A stretch of 52,035 nt of DNA from a virus: the IMG/VR virus record IMGVR_UViG_3300037297_000161, positions 1 to 52,035 of that record. One strand, 5' to 3'. Positions within the stretch are counted from its first letter, which is position 1. Every line of letters starts with the position of its first letter. The notes beneath the pieces were generated by a model. That model did no database searches, had not been told where the DNA came from, and saw nothing but the letters and a program-made list of their open reading frames with translations. The position numbers and the translations under genes are program-made. Of this stretch, positions 20,411-52,035 are shown in pieces.

Positions 20411-21442
20411 ATGGCACTGACTCGGACCACCACGCATGTTGCCGACGGGCAAGCGCAACTCATCTCGCAGTTCGTGCGCAAACCGAACTTCCGCGCACTG
20501 CTGGGCACTTACTTGCAACAGGTGCAGGAGCTGGAGGATGTTTTCTTCCAGTTACTTGGGATCCCGACGGCCATCGAGGCCCAGGAAGGGGCTCAGCTCG
20601 ACCTCATCGGCAAGATTGTCGGGCAAGAGCGAGACGGCCGCAGCGATACGGTATATCGACGCGGCATTTTAGCCCGACTTGCGATCAATCGCGCTTCAGG
20701 CCTCTACGACGAATTCCTTACGGTGCTTGCCTTAGTTGCGCCTGGTGAAATCTCAGAGATAGAGGAATTCTACCCGGCCGGGCTTGTCATCCGGTTGCTT
20801 GATGCATTTTCCGGTGATGGCCCGTACTCGGCGTTGCTGTTGGGCCAGGTACGAGTGGCAGGGGTTCACGGGACGCTAGAGTACTCAGCTGAGGCGGCCG
20901 AGGATTTGTTTGTATTCTCCGCCAGCGACTCCGAAGAATTATCTGAACAAGGGTTTGCCTCTGACGCGACATCTGGAGAGGCCATCACGAATGGGGACTT
21001 TTCGGCCTGGACAGCCGACGATCCAGATGATTGGACCGCATTCGAAACTTGGTCTGACGGCATCACAGAGGTCGGGTCTGGTGAAGGTCCGGCCGGGGCA
21101 GGTTCTGGCTCGGTGTGCATCAATCGAGGTGCGACCGCACCGTACGGCCTCTGTTACATCAGCCAAGCGGTCTCGGGCTTGGGGGCTGGCGCGTCATATG
21201 CGGTTCGTTTCACGATCAGTCGTCTGGTCGGATCGGATCTGCGTGTCCAGGATTCGCTCGGGCTTTTCAATCAAACCTTCAGCGCCGCGGGCACCTATCG
21301 AATTTTGTGCACGCCTAGTGCAGGTGCGTTGACGATCTATTTCGCGACCGTGAACACAACTACTCTGCATGAAATCACCATCGATTCCGTTTCCCTTGCA
21401 CCGACGACCGGTGGCGTGTTTGCCGCCGTAGAGGAGATGTGA
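20411..21442 (+). CDS. baseplate wedge/fibre-connector protein (gpI/DUF2612-like N-terminus) with C-terminal beta-sandwich
   Basis: 343 aa; position after J; C-terminal ITNGDFSAWTADDPDDWT segment resembles carbohydrate-binding jelly-rolls. Confidence 0.5.
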   Translation: MALTRTTTHVADGQAQLISQFVRKPNFRALLGTYLQQVQELEDVFFQLLGIPTAIEAQEGAQLDLIGKIVGQERDGRSDTVYRRGILARLAINRASGLYDEFLTVLALVAPGEISEIEEFYPAGLVIRLLDAFSGDGPYSALLLGQVRVAGVHGTLEYSAEAAEDLFVFSASDSEELSEQGFASDATSGEAITNGDFSAWTADDPDDWTAFETWSDGITEVGSGEGPAGAGSGSVCINRGATAPYGLCYISQAVSGLGAGASYAVRFTISRLVGSDLRVQDSLGLFNQTFSAAGTYRILCTPSAGALTIYFATVNTTTLHEITIDSVSLAPTTGGVFAAVEEM

Positions 21443-21444
21443 TC

Positions 21445-22503
21445 ATGACCTTGACGCCGATTCCGTACTGGGCAACTGATGTCGATCGCACTGTAGAGCC
21501 CAGCGCTGGCGAAAAAGCAACTGGTTGGCAGGCCGGCTATGCCCCGCCGGCCCGCAAAATGAATTGGATTTTGAATCAGTTGGCTGAGGCGATGCGCTCC
21601 CAACTGGTCCTCAATCTCGCAAATCTGAGCGCGCGAGACTCCGGAGGCGGCGCCACGAATACGTACTTTGGGCTGGCGCATGACGGCTCTGGGCTGTGGT
21701 GCGCAGTCGGGGCCAACGGAGAGATTCAGACGTCGCCTTGGGGGATTACTTGGACGGCGCGCACGGCCGCTGGGGGATATTCAAGCACGTTCAATGCGGC
21801 GGCCCATGATGGCTCTGGGCTGTGGTGCATCGTCGGCGCAAGCGGCGAGATCCAGACTTCACCGGACGGAAATACTTGGACAGCCCGGACCGCCGCAGGT
21901 GCCTATGCAGGTACCTTTCAAGGGATTGCACATGATGGATCCAGCCTCTGGTGCGCTGTGGGCTCGTCTGGCGAAATCCAGACGTCACCCGACGGAATTA
22001 CCTGGACAGCTCGAACAGCGGCGGGCGCCTATTCTGGAACGTTTTACGCCGTCGCACACAATGGAGGCGGCCTCTGGTGCGCGGTCGGATCTGGAGGCGA
22101 AATCCAAACCTCCCCGGATGGCATCACCTGGACGGCCCGCACTGCAGCCGGTGGTTATTCGGACGCCTTCAAATCGATCACCTATGGCGCTTCACAGTGG
22201 TGTATTGCAGGCCATGCGCATGCGCTGCAGACATCGCCTGACGGTATTACCTGGACAGCACAAACCACTGCCACTGGATTTCTGGGGGCGTCGGATGATT
22301 TCGAAAGCGTTGACTACGATGGCGCACAAGTCTGGTGCATTGTCGGATCGTCCAAAGAGCTCCAAGTCTCAGTAGACGATTGTGTGACATGGACAAGATA
22401 CCCGCTGGATGCATCGACGGGGCTGAATGAGATCCGCTACGGAATCAATAGTTGGATAGTGACGGGCGCGAGTGGCGAGCTGTTTCAGTCTTTGCGGATC
22501 TGA
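21445..22503 (+). CDS. tail fibre / receptor-binding protein with seven-blade Asp-box (BNR-like) beta-propeller
   Basis: Start moved to ATG 21445 (8 nt after GAGGAG). N-terminal ~70 aa resemble fibre attachment regions. These are followed by seven ~42-aa repeats, each with W..VG..GEIQTSPDGITWT (S-x-D-x-G-x-T-W). Confidence 0.65.
   Translation: MTLTPIPYWATDVDRTVEPSAGEKATGWQAGYAPPARKMNWILNQLAEAMRSQLVLNLANLSARDSGGGATNTYFGLAHDGSGLWCAVGANGEIQTSPWGITWTARTAAGGYSSTFNAAAHDGSGLWCIVGASGEIQTSPDGNTWTARTAAGAYAGTFQGIAHDGSSLWCAVGSSGEIQTSPDGITWTARTAAGAYSGTFYAVAHNGGGLWCAVGSGGEIQTSPDGITWTARTAAGGYSDAFKSITYGASQWCIAGHAHALQTSPDGITWTAQTTATGFLGASDDFESVDYDGAQVWCIVGSSKELQVSVDDCVTWTRYPLDASTGLNEIRYGINSWIVTGASGELFQSLRI
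21667..22500 (+). repeat. Seven in-frame ~126-bp coding repeats (propeller blades)
   Basis: Blade starts at about aa 77, 118, 160, 202, 243, 288 and 329 of the track ORF. Confidence 0.85.
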
Positions 22504-27234: not shown

Positions 27235-29289
27235 ATGCGTTATCTTGTCTTTGTTCTTGCCTGCTTGCTGACTTCTACGGCCCTTGCCGAGACCCAAACC
27301 GTCAAACAGGCCCGGCTGCGTAATGCGCTGCGGGCGACCGGGATGGCCGGCACATACGCGAATCAGTGCCTGGCCGGATTCGCGAATGTTTACTACTACG
27401 ACACCTATGTCGAGCTCGCGGCCGCGACCCCGACCGAGGGGGTGTTCGGGTGGGCCATCGACACCGATGCCATGTATTACTACACCGGCTCAGCCTGGAC
27501 GGCGCTGCTCAGTGCCTCGAGCGCGGGGCTGCTGGGCACCAACGGGGGCACCATTGGCAATGAAACCAACAACGTATGGACCGTAGCTGAGAACGGCGAA
27601 GATTTCACTGTCACCTTCGCGGCCAATTCTGCCACGTTCGCGAGCGGAACCGGCTCCTTGTTCACATTCACGCCAGCAACCACATTCTCTGGAGACGTGA
27701 GCTTCGGCGGAGGCGCAGGGGCTTTGAATCTGTCAGGATCCGGGGACTCAACGATGCTCGTCGCCGACGCGGACGCGACCGCTTGGTGTGCCGGCGCCAC
27801 CGGAGCCCTGGATCTGGTTTGCTTGGATACGACCGACGCAAGTCCGGCACTCGATATCAAAGGAGTGACAACTCAGGTCGCCTTGCATGTGGATGTTGGG
27901 ACAGCGCAATTTGACGAAGGCTTCACCAGCACCGGGGATATCGTTCTCAATGGCGGGGCGGGCGGACTCAACATGTCGGGATCCGGTGACTCGACGATGC
28001 TCGTGGCCGATGCGGACGCAACTGCCTGGTGTGCGGGTGCAACCGGTGCACTGGATCTGATCTGCTTGGATACGACCGACGCAAGTCCGGCGCTGGACAT
28101 CAAAGGCGTAACGACTCAAGTCGCCTTGCACGTGGATGTTGGCACCGTGCTGATTGATGAAGATCTCGCCGTGGGCGGCGGGGCCGGGGCTCTCAATGTA
28201 AGCTCAAGTGGAGATGCGTCCATGCTTGTAGCCGATGCGGACTCGACCGCGTTCTGTACAGGCGCCACCGGAGCCCTGGATATCTTATGCATCGACAGCA
28301 CAGATGCCAGCCCGGGGGTGGTTGTCAAAGGGCTCGCCAATCAGACATCGTTTGCTGTCTCGGCAGGAGACGCCACGTTCGCCGAGGATGTGACAATCGG
28401 CGACGGCACGGCGGCTACTGATTTCAGTCTGACTTTCAACGGCGAGGACAGTGATGGCGTTTGCACGTGGATGGAGGACGAAGCTCTGTTCGACTTCGAC
28501 CACGGCCTGCAAATCGACGGCTCAAGCACGATCGGTGATGGCACCGCGGCCACTGACTTCAGTCTGACTTTCAACGGCGAGGACAGTGATGGCGTTTGTA
28601 CGTGGATGGAGGACGAAGCTCTGTTCGACTTCGACCACGGCCTGCAAGTCGATGGCTCAAGCACAATCGGTGATGGCACCGCGGCCGCTGACTACACTCT
28701 GACTTTCAATGGAGAGGACAACGACGGTACGATTACGTACATGGAGGATGAGGACCGCTTCGACTTTGACAACGATGTCGTGGTGGGCAATGATCTGACC
28801 GTCACGGCAGATGTCACGGTCGCGACCTTGGATGCCGCGGTCCCTGCTATAGCGCTGCACGAGATTCGGTTCTGCGGCAATGGGCCAAACGGTAACACGA
28901 CTGTCTACAATGGTCCCATCCTCGAGACCGACATGGACACAGACATGACCTTCGGGGCGGCGGGCTGTGATGCGAACGACAGCACGACAGAAACAAATGT
29001 CGACGATGCGCCGATCCCATTCGCGTACAAGCCAGTGGCAATGGCGTGTCTTCTCGCCGCCGGGGGAACGGACGATACAGTGACGTTCCAGTTGCGCGAG
29101 GACCAATCGGACGTGACGGGCCTCACGTGCAACGTGGTCATGGACGGGGCGAATGCACAGCAGTGCGTCGTGAGGCTAGCGGCCCCCGAAACGGTGGCCG
29201 CCGGAAGTCTGATTGACGTGTCAATGGTCGCTACCGACGACAACCTCAGCGCCATTGATGCCGAGTGCCGGGTCTTCGTGACGTTCTGA
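27235..29289 (+). CDS. exported fibre/adhesin-like repeat protein
   Basis: 684 aa; textbook signal peptide MRYLVFVLACLLTSTALA|E; three ~80-aa repeats followed by three 45-aa repeats; last gene of the + strand arm. Confidence 0.7.
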   Translation: MRYLVFVLACLLTSTALAETQTVKQARLRNALRATGMAGTYANQCLAGFANVYYYDTYVELAAATPTEGVFGWAIDTDAMYYYTGSAWTALLSASSAGLLGTNGGTIGNETNNVWTVAENGEDFTVTFAANSATFASGTGSLFTFTPATTFSGDVSFGGGAGALNLSGSGDSTMLVADADATAWCAGATGALDLVCLDTTDASPALDIKGVTTQVALHVDVGTAQFDEGFTSTGDIVLNGGAGGLNMSGSGDSTMLVADADATAWCAGATGALDLICLDTTDASPALDIKGVTTQVALHVDVGTVLIDEDLAVGGGAGALNVSSSGDASMLVADADSTAFCTGATGALDILCIDSTDASPGVVVKGLANQTSFAVSAGDATFAEDVTIGDGTAATDFSLTFNGEDSDGVCTWMEDEALFDFDHGLQIDGSSTIGDGTAATDFSLTFNGEDSDGVCTWMEDEALFDFDHGLQVDGSSTIGDGTAAADYTLTFNGEDNDGTITYMEDEDRFDFDNDVVVGNDLTVTADVTVATLDAAVPAIALHEIRFCGNGPNGNTTVYNGPILETDMDTDMTFGAAGCDANDSTTETNVDDAPIPFAYKPVAMACLLAAGGTDDTVTFQLREDQSDVTGLTCNVVMDGANAQQCVVRLAAPETVAAGSLIDVSMVATDDNLSAIDAECRVFVTF
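27706..28398 (+). repeat. Three in-frame ~240-bp coding repeats (GGGAGALNLSGSGDSTMLVADADATAWCAGATGALDL..)
   Basis: Copies 1 and 2 are almost identical at the protein level but differ at many synonymous third positions; copy 3 is more diverged. Confidence 0.9.
28393..28797 (+). repeat. Three in-frame 135-bp coding repeats (TIGDGTAATDFSLTFNGEDSDGVCTWMEDEALFDFDHGLQ.DGSS)
   Basis: Copies 1 and 2 are nearly identical at the DNA level; copy 3 is diverged. Confidence 0.9.
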
Positions 29290-31201: not shown

Positions 31202-31344
31202 CTTGGTCTCTTGTTGGTCTTGATGGGTGCGATCTTGCCGGTCTCCAGGGCCACCGCGTAGTCGAGCAGCGCGATCCGCTCCTCGAGCGTGGCGGCCGTG
31301 CGGGCGGCGCGGCGGGCCTGCTTGGCTTGCTGTGTGGTTGTCAT
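31198..31344 (-). CDS. small basic protein (48 aa), not in the ORF track
   Basis: MTTTQQAKQARRAARTAATLEERIALLDYAVALETGKIAPIKTNKRPR; ATGA overlaps at both ends fill the gap between the flanking genes exactly. Confidence 0.5.
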   Translation of the reverse strand: MTTTQQAKQARRAARTAATLEERIALLDYAVALETGKIAPIKTNKRPR

Positions 31345-31724
31345 GAGATCTTGCTCGCGACCATCGGGTCAAGAGGATGACCGTACACATCGTAGGACCG
31401 GCTGTAGTCGCCCAGATCTTCCAGCTCGGCGACCTTCTCATCGCGCGTCATCTCGCGAGCGGCGGCTTGCTCGCGCTCGTGATGCGTGGCCATGTCCTGC
31501 ACGCGGGCATCCAGGAGCTTCGCTTTCTGGGCCTCGGTCAGCTGCTTGCCCTTCGGCTTCCGGACCAAGCGCTTACCCTTCGCCGCCATCTCGTGTCCGG
31601 ACTCGTCTGTCACGACGCCATCCCAGATGCGCTTGCGGGCCGACGCCACATTCAGCCCCTCTATCCGCGTCCCATCAGCCAGTGTCAGCGTGTAGGTCAT
31701 CGTCTTCCCTTTGTTTGCGTTCAT
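31341..31724 (-). CDS. hypothetical protein, first gene behind regulatory cassette A
   Basis: 127 aa from ATG 31724 (same ATGAAC start as the gene behind cassette B); alternative ATG 31700 behind AAGGGAAG. Confidence 0.55.
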   Translation of the reverse strand: MNANKGKTMTYTLTLADGTRIEGLNVASARKRIWDGVVTDESGHEMAAKGKRLVRKPKGKQLTEAQKAKLLDARVQDMATHHEREQAAAREMTRDEKVAELEDLGDYSRSYDVYGHPLDPMVASKIS

Positions 31725-31914
31725 GACCTCTTACCATAGCACCAGCCGTGCCAATTCTGTCCGTAGCGATTACAGCCACATAGGACGATCACCTCGCAAA
31801 TCTTGCATGCCGCTTGAGCCCAGACCGCGCAAAGTTTGCATACCGGTAATAAAATCAACAGGTTCGCACCGCGTCAATGCAAATATTGCGGACTTTGCCC
31901 GATCTACCTGAAAT
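31722..31914 (-). promoter_or_regulatory. Regulatory cassette A: three TGCAA-N3-TTGC dyads plus TTGGCACGGCTGGTGCT (-24/-12-like, 31753-31738)
   Basis: Its reverse complement aligns over its whole length with 50274-50455 (roughly 80-85 percent by hand alignment, with one 10-nt and one 1-nt indel). Confidence 0.6.
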
Positions 31915-36874: not shown

Positions 36875-38845
36875 TCACCTCCTAAACGCGCTCGGATCAA
36901 ACCGCGCAAACCGCGGAAGACCCGACGCTTTGATCTCCTGATCTGTAAATCTATCATCTTCGCCCTCAAAAAAGCGAGCATTATTTTTACACCAAAGCGG
37001 ATTTCCGGCGGCGTGTAGTGCTTGGACTTCCGCCTCGCTCAGCACGTCGACATCGGCGAAGTTGAGTTTTTGTGCCTGCTGCATCGTACGCTCTACGTAC
37101 TCTGCATCGCGCCTGGCCTGCCGGAACACGTCCCATTGCTCATAGCAGCACAAGAGCACGTCGGCTGTCACCTCATCAGCCTGCTGCCCATCCCTGTGCG
37201 TACGGCCTAAGAGTTGCTCCCATACATCACCTCCTGGCGGAGAGCTGACGATCAGGTTAGCGCCGAAGTGCTGCAGGTTGCGACCCTCGCTGTTCGCCTT
37301 GATTGAGGCAATGCAAGTTTCTTTCTCACCCTCAATCATCTTGCCATCGCAGAGTCCCTTGCTACCGTAGTACGGCAGACCCGCAATGTCAGAGAGGCGT
37401 TTGGCGAATGCAGTTTCATAGCACCAGATGATTCCGGTATTGCTCTCGGCCCAGCGCACAACCCACTGTAGGCATGCATCATCAATCCATTCCGCCACCG
37501 TTGTTGGCTTGTAGCTAGGCTTGATCGCGCGCCAATCGGCCAGTGCTTCCTCAGCCCACGGGATCCGGCCGGCGTCGATTGCGCGAGTAGCGATCAACGG
37601 AGATTCGAGATCACGAAAATCGCGCAGGATCTGACGGAGTGTGGCTGCCCAGATCTTGCGCAAGGTGAGCCACTCGCGCGGAGGGAGCGGATCCCACCTG
37701 TAATAAAACCCCTGGATGAGCTCACGCGCGTGTCGCCATAAATCTGCCGGTGACTCAACAGGATGCCCATCCGGAAGCTCCCAGGAACCCCGGAGCTGTG
37801 CGAATGCATCTACTACGGTTCGACCAGGCTCGAAGCCGTGCCCTGTGATTTGCAGGGTCATGGCACCATCGAATATGTCATCCGTGCCGACCACACCAGG
37901 CGCTGTCAAAAGGCGCCGGGAGTACGCCTGTCGAACCACCTGCAACGACTTGCTCTTCGTAGGTTCCACAGCCAGCTCCGCAAGTTCTTGATCATTGCAC
38001 AGTCGCAACAGAGCCCCTGGAAGAAGGCGACCAGTAGGCGCCACTTTCTCATCTAGTGCATCCGCCCACTCAGCCGCCTCACTATGCGATCGCGGTAGCG
38101 GCTGCAGCTGATCAGGAACAGCCCACATGGTCCGATGATGGTACTCGAGGATTGATCGTTTGGTCATTGTGCCTGACATGTCGATGTAGCCGGCATCCGG
38201 GTTTGTCTTGGTCAAGTATTTGTGCATCCGGATTGTGCACGCCGCGCGCGGGTTTTTGAACTTTTGGCTCTCATCCGAAACAACCAGATCAGGCCTGAAG
38301 GCATTCAACTCCGCGATGCCTCGATCACGAGCCAGGAGCTCGTACGAGATCAAGTGCAGTCGGGCCGGTGCCCGCCAGTGCCGTTTGAGCATTGCAAAAT
38401 CGCGCAAGGTCTTCTGCTGCAGTTTAGCCGGCGTGACAATCAAGGCCTTCTTGGCCTCGACCACCGAGGGCGCCAAGAAGGAGACGAGCGTCTTACCGCC
38501 TCCGACGCGAATGTTGGCGATCATGCCACCATAGTCGTGGATGCATTGCAGTGCTGCGATCTGCACCGGGCGCAAGTGCATGGCGCCGGTCCCACCGCAG
38601 GCACACGCCTCACGCGCTCGCTGACACTCCGCGCAGTGCCGCTGGATCACTTCGTGACCGCATCGGGGTCGGCAACCGTAGCGGGGCGGCAGGGCGTAGA
38701 GTGACTCGAGGAATTCCCCGATCCCTTGGATCTGTGGATCATCCTGCCATCGATACGCAGGGAGAGCCAAAATGCGATCAAGCTCGGCTGAATCCTTCAC
38801 TCCACCGCGGTGGAAGAGGGAGGTCAATTTGCCGGGCAGCGGCAT
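36875..38845 (-). CDS. SF2 helicase (SNF2/DEAD-like) with N-terminal zinc-finger region
   Basis: Track ORF trimmed to ATG 38845; GGGKT (motif I), VVSDESQ (motif II), QLLGRTHRDGQ (motif VI); Cys cluster CRPRCGHEVIQRHCAECQ. Confidence 0.85.
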   Translation of the reverse strand: MPLPGKLTSLFHRGGVKDSAELDRILALPAYRWQDDPQIQGIGEFLESLYALPPRYGCRPRCGHEVIQRHCAECQRAREACACGGTGAMHLRPVQIAALQCIHDYGGMIANIRVGGGKTLVSFLAPSVVEAKKALIVTPAKLQQKTLRDFAMLKRHWRAPARLHLISYELLARDRGIAELNAFRPDLVVSDESQKFKNPRAACTIRMHKYLTKTNPDAGYIDMSGTMTKRSILEYHHRTMWAVPDQLQPLPRSHSEAAEWADALDEKVAPTGRLLPGALLRLCNDQELAELAVEPTKSKSLQVVRQAYSRRLLTAPGVVGTDDIFDGAMTLQITGHGFEPGRTVVDAFAQLRGSWELPDGHPVESPADLWRHARELIQGFYYRWDPLPPREWLTLRKIWAATLRQILRDFRDLESPLIATRAIDAGRIPWAEEALADWRAIKPSYKPTTVAEWIDDACLQWVVRWAESNTGIIWCYETAFAKRLSDIAGLPYYGSKGLCDGKMIEGEKETCIASIKANSEGRNLQHFGANLIVSSPPGGDVWEQLLGRTHRDGQQADEVTADVLLCCYEQWDVFRQARRDAEYVERTMQQAQKLNFADVDVLSEAEVQALHAAGNPLWCKNNARFFEGEDDRFTDQEIKASGLPRFARFDPSAFRR

Positions 38846-39493: not shown

Positions 39494-40071
39494 TTTTCCC
39501 ACACCTGCGCATGGCCGTGCTTGGCCAATCGGTTCCGGAAGGCGGAATCAGCAGCCCAGCGGCCGTCAAGCACTAGTGTACTCGGGAAGGTAGCGCCTCC
39601 GGAGTGTTTGTATTTCTCGCCTTTGCGTTTGGCCTCGGCTCGGAGAAACGCGATCTCCTCTTTCGACCGGATGAATTTAACCCGCTGCCGAAGTGCTATC
39701 GTCGTGCACGGAAACTCCGGGGCCGGCAAGGCCCGGAAGTGATCCTGCTTGAAGACCAGGAAACCGCCATGAGCCCCTCGAAAGATCGCGTCCTGCCACA
39801 CGCGCCAGAACCATTCGACTCGGGTGCGCGGTCCTGGCGGATTGCACCACAGCACCGAGTCCGAAGATACAGGCACCTGCGGCGGGCACGGATCTGCCTC
39901 AGACCAATAGCGCATGGCCCGCACAATCTCCTGGTGCTCCTCGCATGAGGCAAGATCATGTGTGAAAGGGCCGTACAGATCCCGGACAATCTGCAGCACA
40001 TGGTCTGGTGTGCCCCAGTTGTCAGAGTACATGCCTCGAGCGCGTGAGGTGTGATCTGAGGGCCGGGTCAT
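39490..40071 (-). CDS. DNA methyltransferase-like protein (phage Dam-type fold) with atypical NPPG motif
   Basis: Track ORF trimmed to ATG 40071 (ATGA overlap); DNWGTPDHV..FTHDLAS and LWCNPPGP motifs resemble the phage N6-adenine methyltransferase family, but the aromatic residue of (D/N)PP(Y/F/W) is Gly. Confidence 0.5.
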   Translation of the reverse strand: MTRPSDHTSRARGMYSDNWGTPDHVLQIVRDLYGPFTHDLASCEEHQEIVRAMRYWSEADPCPPQVPVSSDSVLWCNPPGPRTRVEWFWRVWQDAIFRGAHGGFLVFKQDHFRALPAPEFPCTTIALRQRVKFIRSKEEIAFLRAEAKRKGEKYKHSGGATFPSTLVLDGRWAADSAFRNRLAKHGHAQVWEK

Positions 40072-40568
40072 AGCGGCAACCAATGCGCAAAAGGGCCTGG
40101 AGGATCGGGAGGGTCCTCCCATTCGTCCGAGGTCACCCCTCGCAACTCCATTTCCAAGAGCATGAGCGCTGACCAGGCCATGTGGGCCAGATGCGGCAGA
40201 CGGCTGCCTTCATTCCGCCGCGCCTCAGGGAGCTCGTCACCATCACGGACAAAGCCGAGCCGCCGCAGCTGAAGATGCCGCCACAACGCATCTTCGTAGT
40301 AGTGCATGCCGTCGGCTCGCGCTGACTGCCAGTTGTTGGGCCCGTGTTTGCCCTCGCCGTACATACTGACTTGATGTACGGCGGTTAGTGCGCGTCGGAA
40401 CGGCTCCGATTTCTTCGAAGCCGCAGCGATCTTGGAATCGACCTCTGGCTTGGGCTCGATCTCAGGTGCATCCTCACACGGCTCCCAGCTATGGTGGCCT
40501 TGATCATTGCAGCCCGGCGGGCACACGCCTCGGCGGTATCTACATGTCTCACATGCGCGCACGGTCAT
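40068..40568 (-). CDS. MazG/MazZ-like dNTP pyrophosphohydrolase (dATP/dGTP diphosphohydrolase N-terminal-domain family) with Cys-rich N-terminus
   Basis: Track ORF trimmed to ATG 40568 behind GAGAGAG; GEGKHGPNNW .. DALWRHL .. SRLPHLAHMAWSALMLLE matches the KYGxxNW / RHL / SGLxHLAHA signature. Confidence 0.65.
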   Translation of the reverse strand: MTVRACETCRYRRGVCPPGCNDQGHHSWEPCEDAPEIEPKPEVDSKIAAASKKSEPFRRALTAVHQVSMYGEGKHGPNNWQSARADGMHYYEDALWRHLQLRRLGFVRDGDELPEARRNEGSRLPHLAHMAWSALMLLEMELRGVTSDEWEDPPDPPGPFAHWLPL

Positions 40569-40723
40569 GGTGCTCTCTCGCTTTCCTCGACAACGGCCCC
40601 GGTCGGACCAGAGCACAACACCCCGAACGCGCCCGCGAGAGCAGCGATCACGGCCAAATAGATGGCCCCTCCGATCACAGCTTTCCCAAGGGGCGTCAAT
40701 ACAGAATGCCACGTGCGTCTCAT
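40565..40723 (-). CDS. small single-TM membrane protein (52 aa), not in the ORF track
   Basis: MRRTWHSVLTPLGKAVIGGAIYLAVIAALAGAFGVLCSGPTGAVVEESERAP; SD GAGGTG 4 nt upstream; ATGA overlap with the next gene. Confidence 0.55.
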   Translation of the reverse strand: MRRTWHSVLTPLGKAVIGGAIYLAVIAALAGAFGVLCSGPTGAVVEESERAP

Positions 40724-40743
40724 CTGTCACCTCTGGTTTCGGA

Positions 40744-42270
40744 CTAGAACCCTCGCACGATCAGATCGGCACACCGCAACAGCACATCCAGGCAATCGCG
40801 CACGACCGGATCTGCACTGTGCGCCACGAGCGCCCTTTTCGGCGGATCAGACACCAAGTGCAGTGCCAGCGCCTGAGCCATCAAAGCGCCATTGCCGCCG
40901 TATAGATCCGGAATCAGCCGGTAATCGTGGCTGTACTCATCCTTGAGCCCAGCCAGCACCGGGGATACATAGAAGGCGAATTCGATCCACGGTCGATTGG
41001 GCACGCAATCGATGTAGAGCTCGAACCCGGGAATGCGATTCGCCGCGGCCGGCCCCTGCGTGGGGACAGAGGCCGGCGCGGCCGGTGCTGCTGCGGAGGT
41101 GGACGCAGGAGTCACCGCAGGAGCTGCGACAGGCGTTGCGGGCGCCTGCGCAGCAGTTTGATCCTTCTTGGCATCGACACAGGTAGCCCCCTGCACAGGC
41201 GCCTGTGCAGGGGCTGCCGGAGCCGCAGCCGCGCAAGCTGCGGCATTTTTTGCTTTCAGGGCTGCCAGCCGCTCCAGCGGCCCGGCGCTCTCAGGCGGAT
41301 TCAACCCGACCGCTGGAGCAGCCGACGGCGCAGGGTCGACAGAGGCGACAGGCGCCGCAGCTCCTTCAGCTCCGGCAGCCGGAGCTGGTGTCTGGGTCTG
41401 AGCAGCCGCGGCCCGGGCCGCGGCCATACGTTCTTTCAACGGGCTAGTCATAGCGAATAGACTCCTAAGTTGTGCTCCAGCGGAGCGATCACAGATCGAC
41501 TCGTACGGACAGCCCCCGTACTTACCACACGAGGCATAATTCGCCTCCAGGGTGTTCGGGTGCGGGGCTGTGTGTCGCAGTTCTTTGAGCTCGCGCGCCT
41601 CACTCACAATACGTTGCCAGGGCTCAGCGATGGTGTCAATGGAAAATTCACACTCGGTCAAAATCGATCGCGGCCTGTTGGTGCGATAGTAGATCCAGCG
41701 ATCGGTGGCTCTCGAGCACCCGAAGCGCTGCATGCCAGCCACCGCATAGATGATTCCTTGAGGATCTTGCTGTAGATCCTCGGGCGTGAGGGCGTACTGC
41801 AGATTGCTCGTGGTCTTGTGATCCCCTACGATTACCGTATCATCTTGCTGATACAAGAAATCGATGAATCCACGGATCAATAGATCATCATCGATTGGGA
41901 TCGTGAACTCTTGCTCGCACCGGGCAATCCCAGGTGCAGGTAGATGCACAATCCCTGGGAGCACGATCGCTACAATTTGATCATGGCTCCAGCGATAGGT
42001 TTTTTGCGGGGTACGGATCTCCAGGGCCTGGCCTGGCCCTTTTGGCAGCCAGCCGGTCCTGAGGTAGCGCTCGAGCACTTTATGGATACCAGTACCAAGC
42101 TGCGCCTGACGGCCGGGCGGATCAGCTTTCTTGAGAATATATTTGAATGCCCATTTGCGCAGACAGTCGCGCACGAGTTTGATCTGGCTCGGAGAGACTT
42201 TAACAAGCCCTTGCACCGGAACGGTTAGACTGGGCGGATCTCCCCACTTGCGGCCTTTTCCCCAGGTCAT
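40744..42270 (-). CDS. PD-(D/E)XK Cas4/RecB-like nuclease fused through an Ala/Pro-rich linker to an unknown C-terminal domain
   Basis: Track ORF trimmed to ATG 42270 (ATGA overlap); motifs GIHKVLE, EQEF, IDFLYQ..VGDHKT, QGIIY, and four Cys (RDC .. CGKYGGCPYESIC); ~140-aa A/P/T/Q linker; ~100-aa C-terminal domain. Confidence 0.75.
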   Translation of the reverse strand: MTWGKGRKWGDPPSLTVPVQGLVKVSPSQIKLVRDCLRKWAFKYILKKADPPGRQAQLGTGIHKVLERYLRTGWLPKGPGQALEIRTPQKTYRWSHDQIVAIVLPGIVHLPAPGIARCEQEFTIPIDDDLLIRGFIDFLYQQDDTVIVGDHKTTSNLQYALTPEDLQQDPQGIIYAVAGMQRFGCSRATDRWIYYRTNRPRSILTECEFSIDTIAEPWQRIVSEARELKELRHTAPHPNTLEANYASCGKYGGCPYESICDRSAGAQLRSLFAMTSPLKERMAAARAAAAQTQTPAPAAGAEGAAAPVASVDPAPSAAPAVGLNPPESAGPLERLAALKAKNAAACAAAAPAAPAQAPVQGATCVDAKKDQTAAQAPATPVAAPAVTPASTSAAAPAAPASVPTQGPAAANRIPGFELYIDCVPNRPWIEFAFYVSPVLAGLKDEYSHDYRLIPDLYGGNGALMAQALALHLVSDPPKRALVAHSADPVVRDCLDVLLRCADLIVRGF

Positions 42271-46633: not shown

Positions 46634-49057
46634 TCACCTCTCGTACTGTCGACACATGGCCTCGACTTGCTGCAACGCCCGATCCAGATCTGCGACAAGG
46701 CCATGGAGTTCATTTGCGGCCTTGAGCTGCTCCAGATCGATCACATACGCATCGACGCGCCCACGCTTCAGGTGTAGTTTCTGTCGTTTCTTCCCGACGG
46801 CCAATGACGCGATCGCTTTGCCGATCATGTTAGGGCTCGGCTTCCGGTAATCTGCCAGGTACGCGCTCCATTCACGAAATACAGCTTTGCCGTTGACGCG
46901 TAGCTCTCCGCGGGTAACCTCGATAGGTGCATGCTTGGCTACCACTACGCCCGGCTCGGCCAGAAAACTCAAGAGCCAGTGCAGCACATCACGCGCCGTT
47001 CCGGTATGACTCGACAGCGCGGCTCGAAGGGCCCCTTCCTCCTGCCGCACAGCAAAGCGTCGACCCGGATTGCGCACCTTCCAGTGCTCCGACAACCAGA
47101 GCACGTGTTGCGCCAGGTGTCGTTTATCGAGCCACTCTCTCTGGATCTCCGGCTGCGGATGCTTTCCGAGCTCCTCCGCGCCAGCATTCATGTCGATGTA
47201 CACTAACCGTTCGGCGAACGCGTCTCGATCGTCCGGGCCCATGTCCTCGTTGGTCTCCAGCACATCGACCGAGTTGGCCGCCACAATCAATCGGAGGAAC
47301 CCGTGGAGCTCTACTCGAGTACGGTACTTTTCATTCAACTCGCGCACCCGCTCGGTGAGGAACCGGCGCAGGAACGTCGTACCTTCTTTGCGGTACTGCG
47401 GGGCGGCTTTTTCATCCATGAGCACAATAGGGCAAGCGCACAGCGTCTTAGCGTTGAACTCATGGAAAGCGGCCTCGGCAGGGGCCGGTCCATGGGCATA
47501 GATCTGAGCAATACCATTCGCAAGTAGAGTTTTACCGGTGCCTCCTTTACCAATCATCACAAGCGCAGGGAGCATGAGATCATGGTGCGGCATCTGAGAG
47601 ACCATGTCGATGAGGAAATCCCCACAGCACTCGAGCCACCGCTGGATCTCCGGATGCTCCGCTGGTTCAACTCGTGCCTCACCTACCTGCATGAGGATCG
47701 TTCTGCGCAGGGGATCCCACCCACCTTGCGGTCGTGTCAGATCGTAGACGACGGCATCGATGACTGTGCCATAATCATACACGAACTGTGCTGAATTTTT
47801 CTTCTGGAGATGAGGTCCGTTTTTGCCTTCAATCTCGAAGTTATCCTCGACGTGCCGCCCAAATACCGCCAGGCGATTACGTGCCGCGGGCAAGATATTC
47901 CCGATCTGCACAGGGCTCGGATCATACGTACCATTTGGCCTCAGGAAGTACACGTCCTTGTTGAGGATGGCGCAAGCATGCTGCCACCACTGCGGCCCAT
48001 AGACCTCGGCAAGATGCGCGATCTCTTCTTCCGTGATCGTTGTGGTTCGTTGCCCTTGCGTAAGTTGCTCCGCCTTGGCGTCCGCTTGCTCTTGCGCCCA
48101 GGCCTCGGCATAGTCTTGACAACGCGCGATCATCCCCGAGAGCTCTTCGAGGTCATACTTACTATCCGGACTCACGAGATCCCAGCCCGGCGTCGCCTCG
48201 ATGAACACTTTGGCGATATCATCTGAAGATGCATTCGGCCACGTGCGGCCGATGATGGTCGCCAGATCGTACAGCGCTTGGTTCCGCTTACCTTCCCCTA
48301 CCGGAATGCTCTGCTGGCCTGTGAGGATGGCTTTGGCAATCGCGCCGCTGTTCTGTGTGCGCTGATAGCGTGAATTTACCCACCGGGAGGCCTGCTGCAG
48401 GATGGCTGTGCGATTTGGGGCCACGCCGTCACGCACTTTGCGCACCGGCGCTACCCAGGATCGCGACACAGCCCCAAGGTCTTGCCCAAAGGCTATGAGC
48501 TCGTCCGTGCACAGCGGCTCTCCCTCATTCAACCACCGAGCCGCAGATTGGCTATGTGAGGTCGGCGCGCTGGGGAGGTAGTACCCTCGCGAGGGAGGTT
48601 CCGCTGTGCACGGATCGATCTTTCCTTGACAGAGCTCCTGCATGGCTCGCCAGACCATCGGCCACTCGTCAGGGGCGTACTCGTCCGTCAGCTCGAAAAT
48701 GAGCCGGTAGCAGCCCAGCTCGTGCTTCCTGGGCGTGAGATGGCTGTGGCTCGTGTGGATGATGCAGCTCGTACCCTTCAGCTCGGCCCACAGGGCCTCA
48801 GCTGCGGCCGGCTCAAGCTCGTCTACATCCGCCACGAAAATGCGCGACATGCGGGCGATATAATGAGCTGCCCGGTACCTTTCCGTCCACTCTGCAACGG
48901 GTACGATCAGATCATGGGCGGTTTTGTCGTCGTTGATTGAAAAGCTGGCATCGATCTGAGCAAAAAGCGCACGCATGTCGGGCACACTGCAATCGTGCAG
49001 AATATAAGGGAAATTGACGCTGTCGTTGATCGTAAACCGGATTGGGTCTGTCATCAT
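46634..49057 (-). CDS. primase-helicase (AEP/PrimPol-like N-terminus, D5/P4-type SF3 helicase C-terminus)
   Basis: Track ORF trimmed to ATG 49057; FVADVDE and IIHTSHSH primase-type motifs; Walker A GKGGTGKT, Walker B IVLMDE. Confidence 0.8.
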   Translation of the reverse strand: MMTDPIRFTINDSVNFPYILHDCSVPDMRALFAQIDASFSINDDKTAHDLIVPVAEWTERYRAAHYIARMSRIFVADVDELEPAAAEALWAELKGTSCIIHTSHSHLTPRKHELGCYRLIFELTDEYAPDEWPMVWRAMQELCQGKIDPCTAEPPSRGYYLPSAPTSHSQSAARWLNEGEPLCTDELIAFGQDLGAVSRSWVAPVRKVRDGVAPNRTAILQQASRWVNSRYQRTQNSGAIAKAILTGQQSIPVGEGKRNQALYDLATIIGRTWPNASSDDIAKVFIEATPGWDLVSPDSKYDLEELSGMIARCQDYAEAWAQEQADAKAEQLTQGQRTTTITEEEIAHLAEVYGPQWWQHACAILNKDVYFLRPNGTYDPSPVQIGNILPAARNRLAVFGRHVEDNFEIEGKNGPHLQKKNSAQFVYDYGTVIDAVVYDLTRPQGGWDPLRRTILMQVGEARVEPAEHPEIQRWLECCGDFLIDMVSQMPHHDLMLPALVMIGKGGTGKTLLANGIAQIYAHGPAPAEAAFHEFNAKTLCACPIVLMDEKAAPQYRKEGTTFLRRFLTERVRELNEKYRTRVELHGFLRLIVAANSVDVLETNEDMGPDDRDAFAERLVYIDMNAGAEELGKHPQPEIQREWLDKRHLAQHVLWLSEHWKVRNPGRRFAVRQEEGALRAALSSHTGTARDVLHWLLSFLAEPGVVVAKHAPIEVTRGELRVNGKAVFREWSAYLADYRKPSPNMIGKAIASLAVGKKRQKLHLKRGRVDAYVIDLEQLKAANELHGLVADLDRALQQVEAMCRQYER

Positions 49058-49408: not shown

Positions 49409-49436
49409 ATAGTATCGTGCTGGTGCCTGCTGTCAA
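49409..49436 (-). promoter_or_regulatory. sigma70-like promoter TTGACA-16 nt-TACTAT for the leftward arm
   Basis: Read on the - strand: gggcTTGACAgcaggcaccagcacgaTACTATgtgatataAAGGAGatcattcatATG. Confidence 0.55.
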
Positions 49437-49487
49437 GCCCGGCACGTCCGTAAAACTCGGCAGGTTCTACCGCGAATTCGCGCTACT

Positions 49488-49516
49488 TTCGCACCGAGGC
49501 TGCGAAGAATTTTTTT
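49488..49516 (+). terminator. hairpin plus T-run (TTCGCA-7 nt-TGCGAA-GAA-TTTTTTT)
   Basis: 6-bp stem only; oriented for + strand RNA although no + strand gene lies upstream; preceded by the palindrome CGCGAATTCGCG (49471-49482). Confidence 0.3.
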
Positions 49517-49551
49517 CAACGATTACGGGCCGCTCTCTCCTATTTCGCATA

Positions 49552-49579
49552 TTAGCATTAAATTTAAAAATAATATAAT
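49552..49579 (+). promoter_or_regulatory. sigma70-like promoter TTAGCA-16 nt-TATAAT
   Basis: Perfect -10 hexamer in the AT-rich core; would give a ~260-nt leader before the 49846 gene. Confidence 0.4.
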
Positions 49580-49797
49580 AGGTACGTGATCATATGCTAT
49601 GGGAGAGAGGGAGCAAGAGGGGGAGAGACGGTCGACCTGCTGCGAACGGGCGAAATTGGCAATAGTTCAATGTTTCTGCCAGACTATGGTGCTAACCTAT
49701 ATGCTAATCGCTGAGAAAAATTAAGACAGTTTAATGTTTTCGCGGTGTTACAATGAAAAGCTAGATGCGAGGTGGCGGCAGGCCAGAGCCAAAATGC

Positions 49798-49825
49798 TTG
49801 ACATTGCCTTGTCGTCTGGTACCAT
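49798..49825 (+). promoter_or_regulatory. sigma70-like promoter TTGACA-16 nt-TACCAT for the 49846 gene
   Basis: Same geometry as the leftward promoter; followed by AGGAGGTGATCT-ATG. Confidence 0.5.
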
Positions 49826-49845: not shown

Positions 49846-50205
49846 ATGCGGTGGCCGTGGATGATCGAAGGCGTTCGTAAAAGGTTAAAGATCTCAGAGA
49901 GATACAGGTCAACTTGGGGATGTAGACGTCAAGGCCTGTACAAAAAAGATTTTGCGATCCTGGGAGAGGCTGTGCTCATGTACGTGCTCAACCAGTCTTT
50001 CGATTCCGATACCTTGCATGCGGCAAGTCCGTTGGCGGCTGATATCTACCAACGCCTGCTTGCTGGGGAACAGGTACTCGAGCCCACGGCTATGGAGAAG
50101 GCTTTGGCAGAAGAACTCGAAGCCATCGGCGAAGCACAGCGACAGGCTCAGCATGAGAAGGTGCTCAGGATCTTCGGCGGACGCTCAGGCTCCGGAGGGC
50201 AATGA
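49846..50205 (+). CDS. hypothetical protein (regulator by position)
   Basis: 119 aa; very strong SD AAAGGAGGTGATC; sits alone between the early control region and cassette B. Confidence 0.6.
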   Translation: MRWPWMIEGVRKRLKISERYRSTWGCRRQGLYKKDFAILGEAVLMYVLNQSFDSDTLHAASPLAADIYQRLLAGEQVLEPTAMEKALAEELEAIGEAQRQAQHEKVLRIFGGRSGSGGQ

Positions 50206-50224: not shown

Positions 50225-50253
50225 TTGAGAATGATTATCATAATCATTCTCAA
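50225..50253. promoter_or_regulatory. 29-bp perfect palindrome TTGAGAATGATTAT-C-ATAATCATTCTCAA
   Basis: 20 nt after the stop of the 49846 gene and 20 nt before cassette B; no clean U-run follows. Confidence 0.5.
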
Positions 50254-50273: not shown

Positions 50274-50455
50274 ATTTCAAGTAGATCGGGCAAAACCTGC
50301 AATATTTGCGATGACGCGGCGCGAACCTGTTGATTTCATTACAGGTCTGCAAACTTTGCAGAGTGATCCGTGCAGAACTTGCGAGGCGATCTTCTTAACT
50401 AGCTGGAATCGTTACAGATTGAGTTGGCACAGCTTGTGCTATGGTATAGGGTATG
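50274..50455 (+). promoter_or_regulatory. Regulatory cassette B: three TGCAA-N3-TTGC dyads plus TTGGCACAGCTTGTGCT (-24/-12-like, 50424-50440)
   Basis: Aligns with the reverse complement of 31722-31914 down to the shared ATGAAC start codon. Confidence 0.6.
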
Positions 50456-50857
50456 AACAACACAACAAGACAGATTGACTGGACGACGGCGGACGGTGCC
50501 ACGGTAACAGTCACGATCAAGATCGTCACCTCGGAGACCATCAAGGCTGACGGGCAGTGCATGGTGGTTGACACATGCAAGTGGTCTGAGACCGTCCGCC
50601 GCGATGGCAACTACATGGGCAGCGATATCCAGCGCATGTCCCCGGCGCAGGTCGGGTTGATCGTGTGCACAGGACACTGCGGTCGACAGCCCATACCGGC
50701 CGATGTCATGGATCAGATCGATATCTACCGCGCCGAGCTCCGGGCCACTGCGCTCTGGACGGATCATGTGGCCAAGATCAATCAGCATCACTGCAAATGC
50801 GATGAGTACGACGCGTCCATCAGCCGCATCGTCAAGATCAACAGTGGCACCTACTAG
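50453..50857 (+). CDS. hypothetical protein, first gene behind cassette B
   Basis: 134 aa; no real SD (consistent with a leaderless start); Cys/His-rich (CTGHCG, HHCKCDEY). Confidence 0.55.
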   Translation: MNNTTRQIDWTTADGATVTVTIKIVTSETIKADGQCMVVDTCKWSETVRRDGNYMGSDIQRMSPAQVGLIVCTGHCGRQPIPADVMDQIDIYRAELRATALWTDHVAKINQHHCKCDEYDASISRIVKINSGTY

Positions 50858-51883: not shown

Positions 51884-52035
51884 GTGAACACGAAGCGCCC
51901 GAACCTGAAAGAACGAGCGAAGCAAGCGACAGAGCAAGCGACAGAGCAAGCGACAGAGCAAGCGACAGAGCAAGCGACAGAGCAAGCGACAGAGCAAGCG
52001 ACAGAGCAAGCGACAGAGCAAGCGACAGAGCAAGC
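51884..52035 (+). CDS. N-terminal part of the wrap-around (ATEQ)n ORF (VNTKRPNLKERAKQ + ATEQ repeats)
   Basis: Frame open from 51839; the only plausible start is GTG 51884 with a weak SD (GCTGAG); same reading frame as 3..266 when the 112-nt terminal overlap is collapsed. Confidence 0.35.
   Translation, partial: MNTKRPNLKERAKQATEQATEQATEQATEQATEQATEQATEQATEQATEQ
51924..52035. repeat. Tandem array, 9 perfect 12-bp units plus 4 nt; identical to nt 1-112 (direct terminal repeat of the contig)
   Basis: Read directly. Confidence 0.97.

Follow-up and report, generated by a model that had tools for sequence, protein, structure and literature searches.

What drives the two gene strings that begin, facing opposite ways, at two copies of one non-coding element of a phage genome? 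The genome is IMG/VR record IMGVR_UViG_3300037297_000161, positions 1 to 52,035 (hereafter the window, meaning this whole stretch of 52,035 nucleotides), a complete, circularly assembled phage genome of ~52 kb with 58% G+C. Each copy of the element, which we call a cassette, runs through the first ATG of a gene string and carries a -24/-12 block just before this ATG, with dyads farther upstream. Judged by its sequence, each cassette is probably an enhancer-dependent sigma-54 (RpoN) promoter. The core elements are the following.

50274 to 50455, plus strand: cassette B, regulatory region through the first ATG; 81% identical to the reverse complement of 31722-31914; non-coding by independent gene calls.
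31722 to 31914, minus strand: cassette A, regulatory region through the first ATG; the inverted counterpart of B.
50424 to 50440, plus strand: -24/-12 element of B, TTGGCACAGCTTGTGCT, with GG at 50426-50427 and GC at 50438-50439; exact TGGCAC-N6-TGCW; 17.0 bits by position weight matrix (PWM), second in the genome.
31738 to 31754, minus strand: -24/-12 element of A, TTGGCACGGCTGGTGCT, with GC at 31740-31739; exact TGGCAC-N6-TGCW; PWM score 17.7 bits, best in the genome.
50451, plus strand: predicted transcription start of B, 12 nt past the C of the GC and 2 nt before the AUG, placed by the usual sigma-54 geometry.
~31727, minus strand: predicted transcription start of A, which puts the first ATG (31724) at +4.

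We aligned the two cassettes with MAFFT and found 81% column identity with a single 10-nt indel. The arms of the inverted repeat pair 31829-31914 with 50274-50359 (86 nt, 88%) and 31732-31807 with 50371-50446 (76 nt, 78%). The two cassette copies arose by duplication inside the phage lineage. ATGAAC forms the 3' end of both, with the ATG at 50453-50455 in B and at 31724-31722 in A. Both contain TTGGCAC-N5-GTGCT, in which GG and GC are exactly 10 nt apart, and the motif ends 13 nt (B) or 14 nt (A) from the A of the ATG. The initial annotation had claimed the diverged reverse-complement relationship, the shared ATGAAC start with its 13/14-nt offset and the exact GG-N10-GC spacing, and all of these hold in our coordinates. 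Each site is at the 3' end of a non-coding stretch, just before a gene string that it faces. The two copies of the -24/-12 element agree at 15 of 17 positions and both mismatches fall at low-information positions. Taken together, the dyad cores and the -24/-12 block are identical at 45 of 50 positions, versus 100 of 132 for the remaining cassette (one-sided Fisher p = 0.023).

Each cassette has three dyads of the TGCAA-N3-TTGCA type. In B they are centred near -74, -97 and -147, as had been stated earlier. Enhancer-binding proteins typically bind 70-150 bp from the start, and the dyads of both cassettes fit such sites. The palindromic elements within the cassettes, which have no strand of their own, are these.

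50298 to 50310: dyad B1, TGCAATATTTGCG, centre 50304 (-147); its 11-nt core is the same in copy A.
50348 to 50360: dyad B2, TGCAAACTTTGCA, perfect, centre 50354 (-97); its core is the same in A and its position matches the second dyad of other phage groups.
50371 to 50383: dyad B3, TGCAGAACTTGCG, centre 50377 (-74).
50404 to 50416: weak fourth dyad of uncertain significance, TGGAATCGTTACA, centre about -41; two mismatches to the dyad consensus, 10 of 13 positions kept in A.
31878 to 31890: dyad A1, CGCAATATTTGCA on the minus strand, centre -157.
31828 to 31840: dyad A2, TGCAAACTTTGCG on the minus strand, centre -107; a 10-nt insertion puts it 10 bp (one helical turn) farther out than B2.
31795 to 31807: dyad A3, TGCAAGATTTGCG on the minus strand, centre -74.
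50323 to 50346: inverted repeat ACCTGT-N10-ACAGGT between B1 and B2; 20 of 22 positions kept in A over 50316-50337.

Because of the indel between A and B, the distal dyads A1 and A2 are displaced by one helical turn, so that the helical phase is kept. Outside the cassettes the genome holds three matches to TGCAA-N3-TTGCA with at most one mismatch, all of them coding. On the minus strand, the inverted repeat at 50323-50346 contains AATCAACAGGTTC, an imperfect match to the IHF consensus WATCAANNNNTTR, and may be a DNA-bending site.

The whole genome was scored with a sigma-54 weight matrix, an approximate one that follows the compilation of Barrios et al. 1999 and has a maximum of 21.7 bits. The exact motif TGGCAC-N6-TGCW occurs only at the two cassette sites. 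The initial annotation had raised the question of whether these sites stand out genome-wide, and they are clear outliers: A scored 17.7 bits and B 17.0 bits, versus 12.6 bits for the next-best site by this approximate matrix. The sole strong off-consensus position of the two elements is -15, where G replaces T. In 3.5 Mb of other phage loci we found ~5 non-redundant sites of comparable PWM quality, ~1 per 700 kb. On its own the PWM score is suggestive only; the correct orientation of the sites and their position at the edge of a scarce non-coding stretch, right before an operon, add weight to it.

We asked whether other viral genomes have the same architecture. IMG/VR was queried with the pattern GCAA-N3-TTGC, N8-38, GCAR-N3-TTGC, N30-50, TGGCAY-N6-TGC, which allows -62 to -82 for the proximal dyad and 19-49 bp for the step between dyads. 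The query returned 13 loci, versus well under one expected by chance. All but one (12/13) are genuine non-coding regions; the 13th is a coding repeat in a giant-virus bin. When N8 replaced N6 between TGGCAY and TGC, the same search returned 0 loci. The 13-locus set comprises at least 7 groups with G+C contents of 41-58%. Two of these groups, g1 and g2, have many proteins in common, and no proteins common to the other groups were found at E < 1e-3 within the fetched loci.

In 7 of 8 groups the centre of the proximal dyad falls between -74 and -77 (P = 6e-5), and farther dyads follow at ~21-bp steps, near -96 and -117. Shifts, where seen, are of ~10 bp: on the plus strand of L346 and L349, the entire dyad array lies ~10 bp, or one helical turn, nearer the promoter. 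We defined a module as two or more dyads (at most one mismatch) with a proximal centre at -74 to -77, upstream of a PWM match of at least 14 bits. Both window cassettes are modules by this definition (B: -74, -97, -147, 17.0 bits; A: -74, -107, -157, 17.7 bits), with a wider array than the other members: the dyad steps are 23 and 50 bp in B and 33 and 50 bp in A (~21 bp elsewhere), and the third dyad, at -147 or -157, lies 30-40 bp farther out than the -117 of the other members. Even at relaxed thresholds, no module was found in 4.4 Mb of unrelated loci.

The search was also run in the reverse direction, starting from two GGCAA-N3-TTGCC dyads alone. This pattern occurs at 62 loci in IMG/VR, 49 of them within long open reading frames (ORFs) and 13 outside. 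A sigma-54 PWM match of at least 14 bits stands at the right distance from 8 of the 13 non-ORF arrays, versus 0.3% of control windows. Four new promoters came out of this dyad-only scan, whose pattern did not constrain them (CTGGCACGGCGATTGCA, CTGGCACGGTATCTGCT, CTGGCACGGGCTTTGCT and GTGGCACGCGTCTTGCT), with dyads near -75, -95 and -115. In the 17 module promoters the free positions are -27 (Y in 14), -20 (R in 17, G in 11), -19 (R in 13), -15 (T in 9, G in 5) and -11 (W in 16), and the positions that the query left free fit YTGGCACGr-N3-TTGCW.

Overall, the module (dyads plus a canonical -24/-12 element) is present in at least 11 other groups of viral contigs, some distantly related, whose G+C contents range from 36 to 58%. 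The member contigs (L339-L351, L365, L368, L378 and L401) have two to five GCAA-N3-TTGC dyads each, mostly with GGCAA/TTGCC half-sites and followed by a normal leader with a Shine-Dalgarno sequence. The genes around the module loci are phage genes (terminase, portal, primase, DNA polymerase; a Mu-type terminase in L350). The initial annotation had read the cassette as a sigma-54-type promoter fed by activator dyads, and this recurrence in at least 11 groups, together with the empty spacing control, supports that reading. No description of this dyad and sigma-54 module was found in open-access literature.

Two kinds of match were set aside. The 49 ORF-internal GGCAA-N3-TTGCC tandem matches are coding, and the inspected examples encode EAKIAALEAKVAA-type coiled coils. 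Such a coding trap is seen at L352 4498-5847 and ~25 like loci in IMG/VR, where a 449-aa head-module protein, encoded beside portal and protease genes, has an N-terminal EAKIAALEAKVAA coiled coil spelled by GAGGCAAAGATTGCCGCT-type codons. The exact motif TGGCAC-N6-TGCTATGGT has 97 matches in IMG/VR, all chance-like and none similar to the cassette.

What the module precedes differs between phages. It stands before a GP88-like protein in g1, g2, g3 and g10, and the window has no GP88-like protein. In g1 and g2, primase and polymerase genes come next on the same strand. This recurrent cargo, which lies just 3' of the module in the four groups (L341 7385-8032, L344 13110-13844, L349 11-685 and L378 6868-7047), is a cysteine-rich protein whose pattern (…TCPG…C.GCYA..G.Y…) resembles the GP88 family.

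The neighbourhood of replication genes raises the question of whether the dyads could be origin iterons, bound by a phage initiator beside an AT-rich stretch, with a -24/-12 element that is incidental or serves transcriptional activation of the origin. Arrays of three or more dyads at ~21-bp steps look like iteron arrays, and in g1 and g2 replication genes come immediately after the module and the dyads are followed by an A/T-rich stretch. However, the cassette occurs twice in the window, in inverted orientation, each time abutting the first ATG of a gene string and each time lacking an AT-rich unwinding stretch. Moreover, a fixed distance to a full sigma-54 consensus and the result of the spacing control are not what an origin leads one to expect. 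We regard an origin as highly improbable.

The closest known counterpart of the window cassettes is in L350 (IMGVR_UViG_3300028595_000129), a Mu-type phage contig whose TerL is 48% identical to BcepMu/phiE255-type terminases. At L350 885-1312, two divergent sigma-54-like promoters, TTGGCACAAGCCGTGCAAC and TTGGCACAAGGCGTGCAAC (as a pair, TTGGCACAAGSCGTGCAAC), flank five TGCAA-N3-TTGCA dyads, and both have the ATG at +3. L350 and the window have in common the TGCAA-type dyads, GTGC at -15 to -12, the ATG position and the leader ATGAACGCAA..ACAAAGG; the leader of the left L350 promoter, ATGAACGCAACGAACAAAGGAG...ATG, resembles ATGAACGCAAACAAAGGGAAGACGATG of cassette A. TTGGCAC-N5-GTGC is invariant across all four promoters (A, B and the two of L350), whose flanks differ. 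The proteins encoded downstream in L350 are unrelated to those of the window, so the likeness lies in the control region. Divergent sigma-54-like promoter pairs also occur at L340 10539-10710, L346 6109-6269 and L349 ~700-900; there three GGCAA-N3-TTGCC dyads form a single shared array in the middle, and each promoter keeps the standard distance from it.

Two opposed, diverged copies that head two gene strings recall putL and putR of HK022. Accordingly, we considered whether the cassette could work at the RNA level, transcribed from upstream and serving as a structured leader or a put-like antitermination element. The dyads are able to form hairpins. Yet the folding energy of the cassettes equals that of shuffles (z = -0.21 and -0.29), the predicted structures of the two copies differ, only 1 of 44 consensus pairs has a compensatory change and Rfam gave no match. 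What is conserved is a set of DNA palindromes, which in L340, L346 and L350 also serve divergent promoters. A role as RNA therefore seems barely credible.

Several points weigh against the sigma-54 reading itself. Sites of at least 17.7 bits arose in 4 of 200 shuffled genomes and sites of at least 17.0 bits in 16 of 200 (2-8%). TGCTATGGT, kept identical in both copies, is also a fair extended -10 (TGn followed by a -10 hexamer with A2 and T6). The -24/-12 block can be read as an imperfect dyad, TGGCAC-N5-GTGCTA, and the off-consensus G at -15, which completes the GCAC/GTGC dyad, recurs in A, B and the two promoters of L350; this block may also be constrained by something other than sigma-54. 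Scans of ~40 ORFs against Pfam and PHROG found no Sigma54_activat domain, no sigma factor and no RNA polymerase, and neither a six-frame search for GAFTGA-type motifs nor tblastn with PspF found an activator in the window or in any module locus. A host activator alone offers no evident temporal control. The regions upstream of E. coli pspA (PspF) and rtcB (RtcR) do not have the dyad, and the literature that we found on the dyad motif has the 5-3-5 form only for archaeal Lrp-type sites (PMC2715240), the other text matches being primers. Finally, the closest relative by TerL, L259 (69% identity), has a gene order like that of the window from primase to tail sheath, but its early/regulatory region is different and it has no cassette, which indicates that the cassette is not an old fixed trait of the lineage. 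The initial annotation had proposed looking for the cassette in related phages: L259 does not have it, and the architecture occurs in at least 11 other groups.

Some of these points are shared by the alternative that the initial annotation had put forward, an extended -10 sigma-70 promoter. Here TGcTATGGT would act without a -35, an activator of phage or host origin would bind the dyads, including the weak one at ~-42, and TGGCAC-N5-GTGCTA would be an operator dyad whose likeness to a sigma-54 element is coincidental; the transcript would begin at the A of the ATG or beside it and again be leaderless. Activator-dependent late promoters that lack a -35 are the rule among phages. The hexamer is followed by the A of the ATG after 8 nt in B and 9 nt in A, and the weak dyad at 50404-50416 occupies a class II activator position. 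Against this, the hexamer is not conserved where the rest of the block is: in place of TATGGT, L350 has AACGTA (within TGCAACGTA), which is not a -10 hexamer, and it keeps TTGGCAC-N5-GTGC. The L350 sequences thus weaken the extended -10 alternative. No consistent -10 follows the TGC across the 17 module promoters, and a standard sigma-70 scan found no -35/-10 pair in either cassette. A sigma-70 promoter also leaves unexplained why YTGGCACG-N4-TTGCW stands at a fixed distance from the dyads in unrelated phages and why all matches are lost on a 2-nt change of spacing. For these reasons we think a sigma-70 promoter unlikely.

Where does the activator come from, if the cassettes are sigma-54 promoters? 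Such promoters require an AAA+ enhancer-binding protein, and known sigma-54 activation is always AAA+-dependent (PMC4641369, PMC7175178). The phage has no activator gene: the initial annotation had seen no AAA+ activator ORF, and the Pfam, PHROG, six-frame motif and PspF tblastn searches, all negative, agree with it. A weak PspF tblastn match to a 393-aa ORF is spurious, as this ORF is a Mre11-type exonuclease. Since the phage has no such ATPase, the activator is probably a host protein. A cassette BLAST search against plasmids gave chance matches only, one of them beside an IS21-type transposase gene in Azospirillum. At that locus (L424 4001-4035, Azospirillum lipoferum 4B plasmid AZO_p1), GGCAA-N6-TTGCC-like repeats by IS21-type istA/istB are probably an insertion-sequence end; their spacing differs and they are thus unrelated to the phage module.

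A binder made by the phage is the other possibility. Sigma-54 holoenzyme would occupy the -24/-12 element and a phage non-AAA+ protein would occupy the dyads, recruiting a DNA-binding-deficient host activator or opening the complex in a new way; a phage-specified factor of another kind could also read the whole element. The protein could be the 119-aa ORFan encoded at 49846-50205, or another small ORFan. The 119-aa gene has a strong ribosome-binding site behind the last early promoter, and this strongly expressed early ORFan is directly 5' of cassette B. In line with such a binder, no canonical activator is encoded in the complete phage genome or in any module locus, and canonical activator genes are rare in IMG/VR as a whole (13 contigs by a back-translated ELFGHExGAFTGA pattern, none of which has the dyads). 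The G+C range of module-bearing phages, from 36 to 58%, is easier to understand if the binder travels with the phage, and small Lrp-type proteins, too, typically have dyads of the 5-3-5 form (PMC2715240). However, no protein family common to all module-bearing contigs was found, and the 119-aa protein has no homologue outside a second assembly of the same phage and no confident fold (pLDDT 53). Three in-phase dimer sites suit the assembly of a hexamer, and sigma-54 activation without an AAA+ protein would be new. We judge a phage-made reader of the element quite unlikely. Its narrower version, in which the dyad-bound phage protein (for example the 119-aa ORFan) activates sigma-54 holoenzyme directly or through a captured non-DNA-binding host activator, we rate as slightly less likely still. 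If direct, it would be a natural route to the sigma-54 open complex that uses no conventional DNA-bound enhancer-binding protein. It would also provide the phage with an early-to-late switch.

The sigma-54 reading with a host activator suggests the following sequence of events. Sigma-54 holoenzyme would bind TTGGCAC-N5-GTGCT as a closed complex, and dimers of an AAA+ enhancer-binding protein would bind the three GCAA-N3-TTGC dyads, roughly on the same face of the helix. The dimers would form the active ring, contact the promoter by bending the ~50 bp in between, and open it at the expense of ATP. Transcription would then begin 2-3 nt upstream of the ATG, so that the mRNA of the first gene in each string would have almost no leader. 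Both operons would thereby be governed by a host signal or by the condition of the infected cell.

The first genes behind the two cassettes are these.

50453 to 50857, plus strand: first gene behind cassette B, a 134-aa ORFan with the same start in an independent gene call.
31341 to 31724, minus strand: first gene behind cassette A, a 127-aa ORFan with its first ATG at +4.

No Shine-Dalgarno sequence was found before the ATG of the 134-aa gene. Its product has no Pfam or PHROG match and finds only itself among 5.8 billion proteins; the 127-aa protein has no family match either and is not homologous to the product of the gene behind B or to that of the L350 gene. The gene behind cassette A has a second in-frame ATG at 31700, 24 nt downstream, preceded by the Shine-Dalgarno-like AAAGGGAAG, and the left promoter of L350 likewise offers an in-frame downstream ATG with a Shine-Dalgarno sequence. 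The ATG is at +3 or +4 in all four promoters (A, B and the two of L350), which supports the idea that the cassette transcripts are nearly leaderless, as judged from predicted start positions.

Behind cassette B, five small ORFs and the gene of a repeat protein lie on the same strand and lead into terS (~1.85 kb downstream of the cassette), terL and the portal, protease and sheath genes. Cassette A stands before six small ORFans, where the leftward arm ends. These positions are consistent with a late or middle promoter, although read-through from the early promoters may occur. A late role is what the gene order would suggest, but the module drives replication genes in other phages and is therefore not a late-gene device as such.

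The genome around the cassettes is divided into two arms. The rightward arm, from terS (270-842) to 29289, encodes packaging, head, contractile tail and fibre proteins. The leftward arm, from ~49400 to 31927, contains replication and recombination genes, whose products include a DUF5906 primase/helicase-like protein, a PD-(D/E)XK nuclease, the Mre11-type exonuclease, a helicase, a family A DNA polymerase and a RuvC-like resolvase. An early control region at 49409-49825 has three near-consensus sigma-70 promoters, TTGACA-16-TACTAT leftward and TTAGCA-16-TATAAT and TTGACA-16-TACCAT rightward, the latter with a TG. The host's housekeeping promoter type is thus conventional. This region also contains a purine-rich stretch (49600-49640) and TTGGCA / CTATGGT words (49657-49693) that echo the cassette core. 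Between the stop of the 119-aa gene and cassette B lies a perfect 14+1+14 palindrome, TTGAGAATGATTATcATAATCATTCTCAA (50225-50253), which is absent from A. It agrees with the Fur-box consensus GATAATGATAATCATTATC at 17 of 19 positions, and 0 such matches arose in 100 shuffles; it could be an iron-responsive operator, another operator or the terminator hairpin of the early transcript.

Elsewhere in the window, both ends (1-175 and 51925-52035) lie in one 12-nt tandem repeat, GCAAGCGACAGA, which codes for (EQAT)n in an ORF running from ~51885 (GTG) to 264-266. As the assembly junction falls inside this repeat, its true copy number is uncertain. Other coding repeats are four 126-nt units (21661-22164) in a 354-aa ORF (21439-22503), and 243/225-nt and 135-nt units (27709-28797) in a 684-aa fibre-like ORF (27235-29289). 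A 220-aa protein encoded on the minus strand at 40068-40730 has a dATP/dGTP diphosphohydrolase N-terminal domain (PF18909, MazZ-like). Enzymes of the MazZ-like type occur in phages with 2-aminoadenine genomes; no PurZ-like gene was found among the scanned ORFs. The window has no tRNA genes.

GenBank phages gave no DNA match to the cassette, to 25 kb of the genome or to the module-class cassettes. TerL queries found many relatives in IMG/VR, GTDB genomes and JGI metagenomes, and a primase query found nothing. The nearest isolate by TerL is Aeromonas phage vB_AsaM-56 (41.7%), and the nearest genomic relatives are Myxococcaceae prophages and a contig of a Cellvibrionaceae metagenome-assembled genome.

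How do the cassettes compare with known promoters? Like E. coli glnAp2 (TTGGCACAGATTTCGCT) and the pspA promoter (TTGGCACGCAAATTGTAT), they have the GG-N10-GC core. They resemble bacterial sigma-54 promoters such as glnAp2 with its NtrC sites in having upstream dyads on one helix face, no -35/-10 pair and an activator that is not encoded beside every target. The NtrC site is TGCACC-N5-GGTGCA, whereas the cassette dyad is GCAA-N3-TTGC (13 bp), and the module sites are closer to the promoter than those of glnAp2 and very fixed (-75, -96, -117). Unlike glnAp2, the cassettes are in a phage genome and their predicted transcript is almost leaderless. The LuxO sites of Vibrio, TTGCA-N3-TGCAA, also serve a sigma-54 activator. 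They have the same pentamers, TGCAA and TTGCA, as the cassette dyads, but with everted instead of inverted half-sites, and so form a different palindrome. As for the leader, the cI mRNA of lambda transcribed from PRM is a leaderless phage mRNA. Cassette B is like it in that the ATG lies within a few nt of the predicted 5' end and has no Shine-Dalgarno sequence; the differences are that the cassette promoters are predicted to use sigma-54 and not sigma-70, and have a 5' extension of 2-3 nt.

The sole phage precedent for sigma-54-like promoters that we found in open-access text is Pseudomonas phage YuA, for which PMC10914365, citing Ceyssens et al. 2008, gives sigma-54-like promoters that were active in a promoter trap. 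In the YuA record (NC_010116), three promoters, at 38392-38570, 40888-41035 and 47152-47312, are marked as having a "-24/-12 consensus sequence" and high activity in the promoter trap. As with the cassettes, they lie in the structural gene region of a phage that has no activator gene of its own. Unlike the cassettes, which reach 17-17.7 bits, the YuA fragments are weak (best scores 5.3, -0.5 and 2.2 bits by the approximate matrix) and have no GCAA-N3-TTGC dyads. With these scores, no dyads and no sequence relationship, YuA was rejected as a direct relative.

Accounts of phage gene expression usually invoke sigma-70 promoters along with phage activators, antiterminators, sigma factors or RNA polymerases, and sigma-54 activators normally answer to a specific signal. 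The mechanism that we propose would be that of an ordinary enhancer-dependent sigma-54 promoter of the glnAp2 type; what would be unusual is its presence in a phage genome that has no activator, the rigid, recurring geometry of the dyads and the near-leaderless transcript. If the proposal is true, nearly leaderless mRNAs may come from sigma-54 promoters. The tight definition of the module (dyads at -75, -96 and -117 plus a -24/-12 element) allows bacterial genomes to be searched for the activator and perhaps for the hosts of these phages. The string of genes that leads into packaging and virion assembly, and a second operon with it, would answer to a signalling protein of the host. Something similar would hold for operons in more than ten further groups of uncultivated phages, and the module would give phages a direct readout of the physiological state of the host.

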